The notes beneath the pieces were generated by a model. That model was given only the letters and a program-made list of their open reading frames with translations, did no database searches and was not told the DNA's origin. Shown one piece after another: positions 12,160 to 45,168 of a stretch of DNA of 64,000 nucleotides; position 1 is the stretch's first letter, and the number at the start of each line of letters is the position of its first letter. The position numbers and the translations under genes were made by a program. The stretch lies in NCBI GenBank assembly GCA_965238175.1, contig CBDEGZ010000003.1:2144001-2208000 (forward strand), read 5' to 3'. Source of the DNA: Gammaproteobacteria bacterium (GTDB taxonomy: Bacteria > Pseudomonadota > Gammaproteobacteria > CAJXQU01).

Positions 12160-13194
12160 TTAATTCACAAACTTTTCCTTCCAGATAGCTTGTCCGTCGA
12201 TGAGTGTTTCCATCGGCGTCCTCCCGCAGCACATTTTGCCTTGGTGAGTTCGTTGAGTATTGTATTTGAGCAACCATTCGTCAAGGTCGAGTTGCAGTTC
12301 ATCAATCGATTGGTAAATTTTCTTACGCAAAGCGACTTGATAAAACTCATTGAGGATCGTCTTATGGAATCGCTCACAAATACCATTCGTCTGAGGTGAT
12401 TTGACCTTGGTTTTGGTGTGTTCGATATTGTTCAACGCCATATAAAGCTGATAATCATGCTGGTCAGCTCGCCCACAATACTCCGTCCCTCTATCTGTCA
12501 AAATGCGCAACATAGGCAAACGTTGTTCTTCGTAGAATGGGAGGACGCGGTCATTGAGCATGTCAGCTGCCGTAATCGGTGTTTTAGTCGGGTACAGTTT
12601 CGCGTGAGCGACCTTGCTGTAAGTATCAACAAACGTTTGTTGATAAACCCGACCAATGCCTTTGAAAGTACCGACATAGTAAGTATCTTGCGAGCCAAGA
12701 TAACCAGGGTGTGCCGTCTCTATCTCGCCACAAGCCTCATCGTCGTCTTTCTTGCGTTCCATCGCCGCGACTTGAGACTCAGTGAGGATCAAGCCTTCAC
12801 CAGCTACCTTATCAGACAATGCCTTCAGGCGATCTTTAAAGCAAGCAAGACCATGACGAAGCCAGATACAACGAACGCCACTGGGTGAGACAAATGTTCC
12901 CCGTTTGCGCAGCTCGTTACTGGTGCGCGTTTGACCATGTGCGGGCTCTTCCAGTGCATACTCGAGCACAACGGTTTCAATAGCCGGGTCGATTCTGTTT
13001 TTAAGATTTGGGGTACGCCGATTACGATCAAACAAGGCTTCTACACCGCCTTCATCAGCCGCTTCTTTGTAGCGATAAAATGTATCTCTGGACAAACCCA
13101 TCATCTTGCAGGCTTTTGAGACATTGCCGAGTTCTTCAGCGAGATTGAGTAGACCAACTTTATGTTTTATAACTTTGTCATTAGTATGAATCAT
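12160..13194 (-). CDS. IS481-family transposase (identical protein)
   Basis: Same 344-aa translation as 10967-12001. Confidence 0.95.
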   Translation of the reverse strand: MIHTNDKVIKHKVGLLNLAEELGNVSKACKMMGLSRDTFYRYKEAADEGGVEALFDRNRRTPNLKNRIDPAIETVVLEYALEEPAHGQTRTSNELRKRGTFVSPSGVRCIWLRHGLACFKDRLKALSDKVAGEGLILTESQVAAMERKKDDDEACGEIETAHPGYLGSQDTYYVGTFKGIGRVYQQTFVDTYSKVAHAKLYPTKTPITAADMLNDRVLPFYEEQRLPMLRILTDRGTEYCGRADQHDYQLYMALNNIEHTKTKVKSPQTNGICERFHKTILNEFYQVALRKKIYQSIDELQLDLDEWLLKYNTQRTHQGKMCCGRTPMETLIDGQAIWKEKFVN

Positions 13195-13874: not shown

Positions 13875-14124
13875 ATACTCATTGAGCCTTCTCCTTTAGT
13901 TTAGCGAAACTCGCTAAACTGAAGGTGATAAAACCAAAACAGGAGAAAGCCCAATGAATTTTTATAATAACCTACACCCTTATTATTGTGGTATCGATTT
14001 ACACGCACGGATCCTTTATGTTTGTATTATAGATCAGGAAGGTCAAATCTGCGTTCATAAAGAAATCTCGGCCAGTCCTGATAAGTTAAAAAAACTGCTC
14101 GAACCCTACCTGGGCAATATTATC
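13875..14124 (+). mobile_element. IS110-family element, left-end fragment with truncated transposase (13954-14124)
   Basis: MNFYNNLHPYYCGIDLHARILYVCIIDQEG is a DEDD RuvC-like N-terminus; cut by the IS3 end at 14125. Confidence 0.85.
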
Positions 14125-14153
14125 TGTAATGGTCAAGTAATCTTGAAGTAAAT

Positions 14154-15039
14154 TTAAGCCACTTTTTTCAATGCTGCTGTTTTCTGTGCGGGTGTGATAT
14201 AACCAAGCGAAGAATGTAATCGTCTGTAGTTATAAAAATAAAGGTAACTCTCTATAGCAGTAACGGCCGCAATATGATTAATAAAACTTAACAGATTCAA
14301 TCGTTCTGTTTTTAAACTCCTGAAGAATCGTTCCATCACACTATTATGCCCAAAGCACTTCGTGGGGCAGGCTCTCCCAACAATTTCCGCGACGACTCAT
14401 GCTCTGAGTGATATTTAGCTTGTTTAGATAATTAACAAACACATTAGCAGAATACTGTACGCCCTGATCGGAATGAAAAAGTAATTGACGCGTGTCAGGC
14501 TGTTGCCTTCGAATAGCATGACGCAGTGCTTCCTTTGCTAATGCCGCATTGGGGTGTTTAGACATCGCCCAACCAACAATCTCTTTTGACCCTAAATCGA
14601 GCACGCATGCCAGATAACTCCAACCTTGATGTGTGCGAACATAAGTAATATCACCCACCCAATGCGTGTTGATTGTTTTCGGATAAAATTGACGTTCAAG
14701 AATATTTTCTGCTTTGATATGGGATCTGCCTGTGTTTGGATAGTAATGCCTTTTCCGAGGCGTAATGGCAAACACATTCGCTTTTCTCATCAATGTGGCG
14801 GTCCGATAGACGCCAAGAGAAAAACCTTTGTTTAATAACGTTACATGCATGCGGCGTTTGCTGTATGAGTAGTTTGTCTCAACCGCGATGGTTTTGATTG
14901 ATTCCATCATGATACGCTCTTCATGATCAATCGGCTTATGTCGACATTGGTAATAATAGGTACTGATACTGGTTTGGAAGACGCGACAAAGTTCGTGAAC
15001 CGTATAATCAGGGTTGGCCTTTTTCATCTGAATGATCAA
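14154..15039 (-). pseudogene. IS3 OrfB integrase core, frame broken by a 28-nt insert
   Basis: WVGDITY, HSDQGVQY, SRRGNCW | insert | DNSVMERFFRSLKTE. Confidence 0.9.
14348..14375 (-). repeat. 28-nt hairpin insert, copy 1
   Basis: AGAGCCTGCCCCACGAAGTGCTTTGGGC between G and AT of the Asp codon. Confidence 0.9.
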
Positions 15040-15347
15040 CTTAGTTTGTCGTTGTCTTGAATGAAAAAAGCTGCGGCCTTTTTTAATATTTCATTGTCCC
15101 GTTTCGCACGCCAAAGCTGTTTTTCTAATTCTTGGATCTTCTGTTGTTCTGCCGTCAGTGCTTTTTTACCTTGGGGTGTTTGTCCCTTTATTTCAGCTAA
15201 ATATTGTCGCTTCCAGCGAGAGACAGCCGTGGCGCCTGCACCCGATATTTCTCTGATCTGCAGATTAGTATAACCTTCGTTGACCATTAGTTTGGCATAT
15301 TCCAATTTCTGCTCAACTGAAAAAGTAACACCTTGTTTTCGGTCCAT
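15036..15347 (-). CDS. IS3 OrfA
   Basis: HTH plus leucine zipper ending EILKKAAAFF. Confidence 0.92.
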   Translation of the reverse strand: MDRKQGVTFSVEQKLEYAKLMVNEGYTNLQIREISGAGATAVSRWKRQYLAEIKGQTPQGKKALTAEQQKIQELEKQLWRAKRDNEILKKAAAFFIQDNDKLS

Positions 15348-15414
15348 TTATAGCTCCTATTAATATTTCAAAATGTTAGGCTATAAATCCATTCAAGATG
15401 ATTAGACCATTACA

Positions 15415-42512: not shown

Positions 42513-43904
42513 TTAATAGCGTTGCAGAACTTTAGTAATAAAATCTAAAAAACCAATGTCGTCATAACCAGATCCGACTAAATAAACAACCACAAAGACA
42601 ACTGTAACTATCCCAACTCCTATAATTAAAAACATAAAAATCCTTTCTATAAACTGGACAATATTCTTTAGAGTTATTGCTAATCCATTAATAAAATAAT
42701 TTATTGCAGCTATAAATCCAGAAATAACCTTTGAAAAAACAAGACTAATCAATCCAAAAAAAGAATGCTTTTCTGAATGGCCAGAAGGCGATCCTAAATT
42801 TTGTGCAAAATGCCTAGATCGTTTTTCTAGTAGAATTTGTCTTTCTAACTCGTTGCGCTTTGCATCTTCATTAATGACAGTCCTCAGTGCAGCAGGAAAA
42901 AACGCTTGCTCTGATGCTTCTATTTCCGCGACGTCTTCTGAAACTTCCGCAGCGACGACATCTTCTGAAACTTCCGCAGCGACGACATCTTCTGAAACTT
43001 CCGCAGCGACGACGTCTTCTGAAACTTCCGGAGCGACGACGTCTTCTGAAACTTCCGGAGCGACGACGTCTTCTGAAACTTTCGCAGCGACGACATCTTC
43101 TGAAACTTCCGGAGCTACGACGTCTTCTGAAACTTCCGGAGCTGTTGTATCCGGAAATCTATGTTTTTTGTGGCTGCGTATTACTCGAGCAATAAAATCA
43201 TCAGCAGCCTTTATAGCTCTAGTCAGCTCAAAAAGTGACGCTTTTTCAATTTTATCTTCAATCTGATGAGCAACTTGTAAACAATGCACCGATAGTTGTT
43301 TATACTTTTTAGCTCTAGTTGGAATAACAACAATATCTCGTTGTAAAATATCTGCCTGTTTTTTAAGTGTATGGACACGTTGTGTCAAAAGCATAATCGC
43401 TTCTTCTCGCAACTTAATTCTTTGAGCCTGTCGAAGATCTATACTTTTTTCGTATAACTCACTGGCCATGATGAGTAATTCTTCAATATCCGGTAAGGCA
43501 GCAATATCAACACTTTCTTTACAAACTGAGGCTATTTTCCGGCAATCTTCCGCAAGCAATTTAAATTCTGCTTTTAAACCAGGCCATCTACCTGCCTCTA
43601 GTTCAAGTCCTGTGGCTTCCTGTTTGAGGTGGTTAATCCGTAATTTTAACCGTAGACGACGGCCTTCTGTAAGAAAAGCATTCGCTGTTCTCAGAGACGA
43701 TAACTCTAGATCTCTATTGTTTTGTTGGCGATTTTGTTGAATTTTTTTAGCAGCGACACTGCAATCGGCCGAATGTTTCTTTAATGATCGTTCGTAATCC
43801 GGGAACTGTCGAGATAACTGATCAAAATAACGCACCTCGCTTTGTAGTTGTACGACAGCTTGTTCTATGTTTTGTACTTTGATATTTTGCTTACCTACCG
43901 ACAT
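42513..43904 (-). CDS. Hypothetical helical protein with acidic tandem repeats and C-terminal TM
   Basis: 463-aa ORF. Confidence 0.7.
   Translation of the reverse strand: MSVGKQNIKVQNIEQAVVQLQSEVRYFDQLSRQFPDYERSLKKHSADCSVAAKKIQQNRQQNNRDLELSSLRTANAFLTEGRRLRLKLRINHLKQEATGLELEAGRWPGLKAEFKLLAEDCRKIASVCKESVDIAALPDIEELLIMASELYEKSIDLRQAQRIKLREEAIMLLTQRVHTLKKQADILQRDIVVIPTRAKKYKQLSVHCLQVAHQIEDKIEKASLFELTRAIKAADDFIARVIRSHKKHRFPDTTAPEVSEDVVAPEVSEDVVAAKVSEDVVAPEVSEDVVAPEVSEDVVAAEVSEDVVAAEVSEDVVAAEVSEDVAEIEASEQAFFPAALRTVINEDAKRNELERQILLEKRSRHFAQNLGSPSGHSEKHSFFGLISLVFSKVISGFIAAINYFINGLAITLKNIVQFIERIFMFLIIGVGIVTVVFVVVYLVGSGYDDIGFLDFITKVLQRY
42928..43143. repeat. 27-bp coding tandem repeat, about 8 copies (xEVSEDVVA)
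   Basis: gcgacgac(a/g)tcttctgaaacttccg(c/g)a units. Confidence 0.92.
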
Positions 43905-44601: not shown

Positions 44602-44870
44602 CTAAGCCGCATTGAGTAACATTTGTATTTATTAGTGCTGGCGCTATATATCCAATCGTCGAATTAATTCTTTTGTTGTTATAATTCCGGATGTAATGCT
44701 CAACAGCTGACACAACTGCTTGATGATTAATGAATGATAGTCCGTTTAAATATTCGCTTTTTAGACTTCTAAAAAATCGTTCTTGAACAGCATTATGCCC
44801 AAAACACTTCGTGGGGCAGGCTCTCCCAGCAGTTACCTCTTCTACTCATACTTTGAGTGATGTTGTGCAA
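44602..44870 (-). pseudogene. IS3-family OrfB C-terminal remnant containing the 28-nt insert
   Basis: ITQSMSRRGNCW | insert | DNAVQERFFRSLKSE. Confidence 0.85.
44797..44824 (-). repeat. 28-nt hairpin insert, copy 2
   Basis: AGAGCCTGCCCCACGAAGTGTTTTGGGC, one mismatch to copy 1. Confidence 0.9.
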
Positions 44871-45168
44871 TGACAATGTTTGTTTGAATAGGCTATCAAG
44901 TCCTACAAGTTTATTAAACCATTGCAACCCTTCAATCCGACACTGAGGAAAGCAAAAAAGCGTATCAGAGACACTTTTCTCGCCGCTGTACCAATTTATG
45001 ATCAGGCGCATTTATGTCAAATCATTTCATGGCTTTTCGACGAAAATACTGTCGAAAATTACAGCGTTAACTATCCTTTAATGGTTCAGTAAATAGATCT
45101 GGAATAACATCAATCACCTGAAATCGTGACCGCCTAAACACACTACGGGTTGTCTATAGTTATCAACC

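Follow-up and report, generated by a model that had tools for sequence, protein, structure and literature searches.

The closest known counterparts of the sequence described here, a 28-nt insert hereafter called E, are the cyanobacterial SDRs and the REP/REPIN elements. SDRs are small conserved hairpins with compensatory changes, too small to encode anything; as reportedly described by Elhai et al. in 2008, they are dispersed units of 21–27 nt, nested or in tandem, within heptamer repeats or small transposons. To our knowledge, the mechanism by which SDRs move, the only comparable class, is still unknown. Judged from the definition of the class rather than from SDR sequences, E resembles them in being 28 nt long, dispersed, arranged in tandem at one locus (L081), located inside mobile elements and flanked by heptamer repeats, and its small predicted hairpin is likewise supported by compensatory changes. 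It differs in its hosts, which are Gammaproteobacteria together with single MAGs labelled Haliangium and Parasphingorhabdus rather than cyanobacteria, and in its low copy number (1–22 per genome). We know of no strong residence of SDRs in transposase coding sequence at conserved motifs, where E is found. REP/REPIN elements are short, hairpin-forming, non-autonomous repeats mobilised by RAYT (Y1/HUH) transposases (PMC3116915). E is also a short, non-autonomous repeat with a weak predicted hairpin; it occurs inside Y1/HUH-like genes and forms the basis of a palindrome at locus L015. Unlike REPs, however, it has no GTAG-type head, and inverted doublets are not the rule. Whereas REPs number tens to hundreds and are mainly extragenic, E has 1–22 copies per genome and is mostly intragenic. 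The search turned up no E-flanked RAYT gene, and in four of the six E-bearing genomes searched the Y1 family was not found.

IS200/IS605 elements insert seamlessly, without target duplication, in a hairpin-dependent manner and at a short sequence-defined target beside the insertion point. Their single-strand 'peel and paste' transposition has been described (PMC6006769). If E works like anything known, it would work in this mode: its insertion is also seamless, without target duplication and adjoining a short target. E nevertheless has one hairpin instead of two different ends, and its conserved flank is only A|Y (the bar marking the insertion point) instead of a 4–5-nt word. IS110-family elements use the same IS3 GNCW-DN codons as E for landing (TGG GAY|), but they are full IS with their own DEDD transposase, whereas E encodes nothing. 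Mitochondrial translational-bypass elements (byps) and ciliate IESs (26–30 bp) are tiny mobile inserts that genes can carry in their coding sequence because the insert is either skipped or excised. E is likewise a tiny mobile insert in coding sequence, and byps and IESs are the models for a removable E; unlike them, E lacks take-off and landing codons that match, and the data examined showed no excision.

The window analysed is a 64,000-nt stretch (C3:2144001-2208000) of a 3.35-Mb genome, referred to below as the source genome. Three copies of E lie in this window, with the following features given in window positions:

14348-14375, minus strand: E copy 1, within the GNCW-DN Asp codon of IS3 orfB, exactly 28 nt against the empty sites of relatives
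14125-15414, minus strand: full-length IS3-family element carrying copy 1, 1290 bp with E included
14125-14160 and 15379-15414: inverted repeats of this element, 36 nt
15036-15347, minus strand: orfA of this element, 103 aa
15078-15084, minus strand: A6G slippery site of this element
14344-15039, minus strand: N-terminal part of its orfB, a 231-aa ORF ending in ...GNCWESLPHEVLWA and a stop
14154-14339, minus strand: C-terminal part of its orfB, a 61-aa ORF resuming at ...MERFFRSLKTE
44797-44824, minus strand: E copy 2, with one C-to-T change relative to copy 1 (GTGTTTT for GTGCTTT), coding strand 44824->44797
44636-44894, minus strand: IS3 orfB remnant around copy 2, found by tblastn (genome 2188636-2188894)
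58114-58140, plus strand: E copy 3, 27 nt, degenerate, with 8 differences from copy 1 over 28 aligned positions, hosted by a short remnant of IS3 orfB

On the coding (minus) strand, copy 1 at 14375->14348 reads TGT TGG G|AGAGCCTGCCCCACGAAGTGCTTTGGGC|AT AAT. The register 14347-14374 is equally good (GAGCC...GGGCA at 14374->14347), the boundary being ambiguous by one A. The host of copy 1 has the TG...CA inverted repeats, the orfA/orfB arrangement with an A6G -1 frameshift site and the rve DDE domain of the IS3 family, and homologues carry PF00665, PF13276, PF13333 and PF13683. The first-pass annotation of this DNA had reported three inserts at one nucleotide of IS3 orfB, an otherwise intact IS3 around copy 1, and an insert better conserved than its host. 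These observations were reproduced: sequence and coordinates agreed, both 36-nt inverted repeats, the A6G site and the 103-aa orfA were present, and copies 1 and 2 differed at 25 of 88 flank positions and at 1 of 28 positions in the insert. The recognisable host of copy 2 comprises about 33 aa preceding the insert and 51 aa following it, and belongs to a lineage different from that of copy 1 (tblastn and tree). A 19-mer of E matched the window twice at ≤3 mismatches, against 0.00 expected from 100 shuffles. Other mobile-element genes surround copy 1, among them a 344-aa ORF (12160-13194, minus strand) whose translation resembles by eye an rve/IS481-type transposase, and a 65-aa piece (13954-14151, plus strand) that may be the N-terminus of an IS110-type transposase. 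Elsewhere in the window, a 463-aa ORF (42513-43904, minus strand) contains a series of nearly identical 9-aa repeats (APEVSEDVV) as well as a hydrophobic segment at its C-terminus.

The consensus of E is GAGCCTGCCCCACGAAGTGYTTTGGGYA, 28 nt of non-coding sequence in which a 5-nt tail precedes a weak, bulged hairpin. Empty-site alleles, which the first-pass annotation had proposed to look for, were found: filled and empty IS6 alleles were exactly 28 nt apart at two sites, with no target duplication beyond one ambiguous A. Neither the absence of a target-site duplication nor the ends GAGCC and GGGTA, which are not inverted repeats, fits a MITE. Among the matches listed, which fall into 59 contexts, the base at -1 was A in 50 and the base at +1 was Y (C/T) in 57, and all other target positions carried ≤0.28 bit each. 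When A|Y sites drawn at random from these loci served as the reference, A|YGGC was used 8 times against 1.2 expected (0/500 draws) and A|YAAY 8 times against 2.2 expected (1/500 draws), tests that overstate significance because the flank clusters are not fully independent. Since E favours GA|YAAY, the near-invariant GAY AAY (Asp-Asn) before the catalytic Glu of IS3-family transposases becomes a recurrent landing site. The low target information also means that target choice cannot explain why nearly all copies of a genome reside in a single kind of mobile element. Entry of E at the loop/3'-arm junction of target palindromes was considered as well and rejected, the mean best stem being 1.97 bp against 1.95 at random A|Y sites.

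The hairpin consists of the pairs T6-A28 and G7-Y27, CCC/GGG, a CAC-GAA-GTG inner stem-loop and a CTTT bulge. The predicted fold equals the one proposed at first pass, but it is weak and no more stable than shuffled sequence (DNA MFE -3.3 kcal/mol, z = -0.31; 77/200 shuffles folded as well). Pair 12-18 changes from A-T to G-C in 5 of 43 distinct sequences, with two G-T intermediates, and pair 7-27 is G-T or G-C among the variants. The stem-compensated variant (CAC/GTG to CGC/GCG) was present in four unrelated contexts in four genomes, plus IS6 site 2 in genome G001, and this variant is itself mobile.

Pattern and tblastn searches of the source genome revealed about ten copies of E in IS3 orfB, all at one codon; seven came from the pattern search and three more were degenerate, window copy 3 among them. 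Thus 10 of 11 copies sit in IS3, and the eleventh is a 37-nt variant with 9 extra nt in the loop, in an intergenic spacer outside the window (C3:823640-823680). A similar 36-nt variant occupies IS6 site 2 in G001. Copy 1 is the only one of the roughly ten E-bearing IS3 to be full length. Insert-free IS3 are also present in this genome: an apparently intact family of eight copies (GECHDNAVAESFF; e.g. C3:213975-214775), which indicates that not every IS3 has been hit, a copy at 2.07 Mb and, at 1.745 Mb, a remnant whose empty site reads TGCTGGGATAAT. The contigs of one DNA sequencing run, probably of the source sample, showed no joint across the insert and yielded only one unrelated insert-free IS3, from another, low-depth contig.

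An OrfB tree was built from the E-bearing copies of the source genome and 104 full-length insert-free database homologues. Six E-bearing copies (2158k, 2228k, 1282k, 675k, 1091k and 514k) formed one clade, with the insert-free database protein P0001 (84% identity) as sister. A single clade of insert-bearing copies, which the first-pass annotation had named as a result that would speak against it, was therefore recovered for these six, but copy 2 and the 3.28-Mb copy were placed elsewhere in the tree, which implies at least three separate insertions in the source genome. Diversity over all ten copies was 0.198 in the insert and 0.372 in the flanks, with 0 of 10000 random sets of flank columns as low; within the six-copy clade it was 0.172 against 0.261 in the coding flanks (31 of 10000 random column sets as low). 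E was less diverged than its flanks in 43 of 45 copy pairs, the exceptions being 675k/1282k (equal) and 1282k/514k, and in dead IS3 copies it had decayed to 3 to 8 differences from copy 1. The nearest homologue of copy 1 among those listed (84% identity) was insert-free. The CWESLP tail was present in none of the 73 sequences examined out of 120 listed homologues of copy 1, the remaining 47 being proteins of 259-287 aa with C-terminal rve domains. On the preferred reading, the E copies of the source genome were inherited inside IS3 elements that E inactivates. Four copies of 27 nt are in frame, yet the same copies have other nearby indels, taken as decay, and a frame-restoring deletion under selection was rejected. 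A strand bias relative to replication was not supported either (8 of 11 copies on one sense, not significant). The E-bearing remnants at C3:1282580 and 2228077 start at almost one internal point (AACGCA|CTGAAT) and may be copies of one internally deleted derivative.

The search of source and public genomes suggested at first pass yielded, besides the copies above, exact matches to a 23-mer of E at more than 117 loci in GTDB species-representative genomes. In most of these loci the surrounding sequence is unrelated. The matches listed comprised 140 distinct instances in 59 flank clusters, and their carriers were mostly uncultured marine or sediment Gammaproteobacteria, in addition to the MAGs labelled Haliangium and Parasphingorhabdus. 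In an even sample of 400 other genomes of the class, eight contained E at ≤2 mismatches, every one from a different family, and a reversed-pattern control gave no match in the same 400. None of the 40 nearest relatives of the source genome contained E, and no exact match was found in viral contigs. Literature searches of the main texts of open-access papers found no description of E or its motif. Outside the source genome E is thus a repeat at many unrelated sites, an outcome that had been named in advance as contrary evidence: among the matches listed it occupied 59 contexts, with at least ten mobile-element gene families and intergenic repeats. The earlier proposal of a mini-element that targets and inactivates IS3 accordingly survives as a discrete mini-element and loses its IS3 specificity, given the many other host families.

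Hosts were identified by Pfam scans or alignment. They comprise IS3, IS6 (two sites), IS256, IS91, IS66, IS5, rve_3 and other rve genes, and further IS110-adjacent sequence, a group II intron RT, IS3 orfA, a Y1/HUH family and a gene with HTH_38 domains only. By our tally, about 25 of the 59 clusters among the matches listed lie in mobile-element genes, and these clusters hold most instances. E occurs both sense and antisense to its host genes; the two IS6 sites are antisense in ...SYAV|WLYYRF and sense in VDQ|DGEV, and nearly all copies of genomes G001 and G003 are in IS6. In IS3 and rve genes E is always at GA|Y of an Asp-Asn pair. The IS3 Asp codon has been hit in at least ten rve/IS3 lineages with 12-65% identity over the flanking 85 aa (91% in one pair), and two more, non-homologous Asp-Asn sites carry E at loci L036 and L085; in all, three non-homologous Asp-Asn dipeptides in rve genes are split, each at GA|YAAY. 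Other contexts are largely intergenic, with short repeats of CACGAAG-, CACAACG- or CGCAGAG-type or larger palindromes. Locus L081 is a head-to-tail array of E with period 28, and L015 contains a long, perfect palindrome formed from E. An E-bearing IS66 was considered as a case of recent transposition and rejected, the two 'identical' copies sharing only fragments of 133-459 nt.

The Y1/HUH transposase-like family, multi-copy and about 330 aa long, carried E at 20 loci, antisense in YYHCVSRC|V|RRAFLCG. Its members (L018:5608-6591 and the G005 loci L141-L152) display the motifs SNHYHVV and YVDLNPVRA, and the longest ORF had no Pfam match at 1e-3. Genome G005 contained 27 matches to the family, with at least seven open full-length genes free of E and two E-bearing pieces, both fragments. 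In three genomes an IS110-family element with a DEDD transposase was observed in IS3 orfB, one base further downstream than E (TGG GAY|ACTCAGTT...; L131:3640-3990, L139:50-420 and L140:3170-3500), and database proteins ending in CWD+TQFI... (P0024, P0072, P0075 and P0085) are explained by such an insertion.

We consider it somewhat better than even (probability about 0.58) that E is a 28-nt non-coding, non-autonomous mobile mini-element, SDR/REP-like, which breaks the transposase genes it enters. E is discrete, exact in size, widespread in many contexts and polymorphic for presence or absence, and it has a target bias, disrupts the reading frame and is conserved above its hosts. In the proposed course of events, E would insert precisely at A|Y without target duplication, favouring GA|YAAY and A|YGGC; the +1 shift would truncate OrfB ahead of the third catalytic residue, so that each copy hit would be inactivated and, at best, mobilisable in trans. 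In the source genome, E would have arrived and spread with IS3, one E-bearing lineage giving rise to at least six copies, now decayed, and separate insertions would have entered two or more further IS3 lineages. We infer that E moves as DNA by means of a trans-acting enzyme, our leading guess being a hairpin-recognising single-strand enzyme of the HUH/Y1-like kind. Its high conservation probably reflects selection for its own mobility, in which only intact copies seed insertions, rather than a service to the host IS. The copies themselves look like dead ends: none of the 73 homologues examined has CWESLP, the E-bearing Y1 pieces of G005 are fragments, and one of about ten IS3 copies is full length.

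No mobiliser of E was found in this analysis. With the E host as query, the Y1 family had no match at E≤1e-5 in G001, G002 and G004, a weak one in the source genome (34% over 61 aa) and a distant one in G003 (35% identity); co-occurrence therefore failed for this family as mobiliser, as it was not found in four of six E-bearing genomes searched. Further points against a mobile mini-element are the low target information, the divergence of the E-bearing IS6 genes described next, the variants held in common, the conservation of E at the level of a clade and a hairpin stability equal to that of shuffled sequence.

IS6 copies were collected by protein homology and not by the E motif. At site 1, E was carried by 17 of the 21 copies; of the 12 copies at site 2, eight had it, three were empty and one was deleted. 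The E-bearing copies have dS > 1 with dN/dS of 0.03-0.19, and their E copies are 0-4 nt off the consensus; the insert-free copy g3_41k is as near to copies with three inserts as those are to one another. Two diverged IS6 copies of one genome have a rare stem variant in common at one site. Gene conversion as the means of spread was rejected: no conversion tract was seen around E, and the flanks differ right beside it (copy 1/copy 2; g1_757k/g1_767k). Either very many independent hits have fallen on two sites, or these genes have been under selection while carrying E. Two readings remain. In one, E strikes the same few sites repeatedly and the intact copies are young; in the other, E has long resided at those sites, where selection retains it because it is removable. 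Repeated strikes are needed in any case, because IS3 subgroups were hit independently, and they also fit the insert-free forms that dominate the IS3 subfamily, the E-free full-length Y1 genes of G005 and the movement of E variants between contexts. Long residence under selection is the better fit to one host type per genome and to variants common to diverged copies in one genome.

The second of these readings belongs to a broader alternative, which we judge unlikely: E may be a removable intervening sequence, excised precisely either at the DNA level, as an IES is and for instance by a single-strand HUH enzyme, or at the RNA level, such that transposase genes stay functional but throttled and selection on the IS keeps E intact. 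It would account for an insert far better conserved than the synonymous sites of its host (0-4 differences in 28 nt where dS > 1) and for host ORF segments that remain open and subject to purifying selection, even where a single IS6 gene carries three inserts, each shifting the frame by +1. The insert-free yet closely related g3_41k would fit precise loss, rare E variants are common to diverged same-family copies within one genome, and the C or T at position 27 mostly follows host context. However, E lies in both orientations relative to host genes, which argues against an RNA signal, flanking repeats able to drive deletion are absent, the IS3 subfamily and the Y1 family consist predominantly of insert-free forms, their E-bearing copies being mostly fragments, and recurrent insertion exists regardless. 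That E is a bacterial counterpart of an intron or IES, a 28-nt mobile cassette in the transposase genes of many IS families that a shared enzyme, of the host or of a mobile element, removes precisely from DNA or RNA, seems doubtful to us; if true, IS would carry a reversible off-switch and E would be a hyperparasite riding between genomes, kept intact by selection.

Programmed recoding had been offered at first pass together with removal; whether by a +1 frameshift at YUU-U or by ribosome bypass, we now hold it to be very improbable. The +1 frame is indeed open across E, and a slip site, CUU-U or UUU-U, survives in either position-20 variant. Neither a slip nor a hop, however, can restore an Asp codon that is split (GA|Y). 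Any read-through product would be nine residues longer, with His or Tyr where Asp is conserved; the take-off/landing TGG codons either stand in the frame of a stop or open into the wrong frame; and E is also found antisense and in non-coding DNA. The footprint of a larger element once at the site (a group II intron, an IS110-type IS or a recombinase product) likewise has little to commend it. The IS110-family element one base downstream in three genomes and the group II intron RT genes at some E loci are compatible with such a scar; the IS110 end (ACTCAGTT...), however, is unlike E, the 28-nt unit is precisely what separates filled from empty alleles, and this unit is constant in 59 contexts among the matches listed and in tandem arrays. 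No larger element with E-like ends was seen in the loci examined. Rfam gave no match at E in the window or in five loci and an unrelated weak match in L020, and a unit of 28 nt contrasts with the hundreds of nt expected of a group II intron. One chance event, in which 28 nt entered a single IS3 ancestor at random and were then passed on under neutral decay, agrees with the six-copy clade sister to insert-free P0001 and with the decay of E in degenerate copies. As a complete explanation it is already contradicted by copy 2 and the 3.28-Mb copy outside the clade, by the same 28 nt in 59 contexts elsewhere among the matches listed and by the lower divergence of E than of its flanks in 43 of 45 pairwise comparisons, and we give it hardly any weight.

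Elements as small as E cannot encode their own mobility. With a fixed sequence, exact boundaries, filled and empty alleles, a moving compensated stem variant and a target bias, E makes the question of their mobility testable. As a mobile mini-element, E would represent a parasitism of parasites, the silent inactivation of IS copies. Conserved transposase codons act as landing pads for other mobile DNA, as seen with E, with a 16-17-nt insert and with the IS110-type element. For annotation, 'split' or 'frameshifted' transposases of IS3, IS6, IS256, IS91 and IS66 in Gammaproteobacteria may often be E insertions rather than random decay.

The 16-17-nt sequence is a second tiny insert, GCCGGTGTGCCGGACCA-like and with a CCGG-TGTG-CCGG hairpin, that was observed in IS6-family transposase genes at loci L118-L126, L006, L037, L063, L072, L083, L111 and L117 (e.g. 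L120 ~13573, minus strand). It follows DEVF in 13 of 16 instances and lies at LSH(R)|IEDLL in the other 3. It is absent from the source genome and shows presence/absence polymorphism among IS6 copies.
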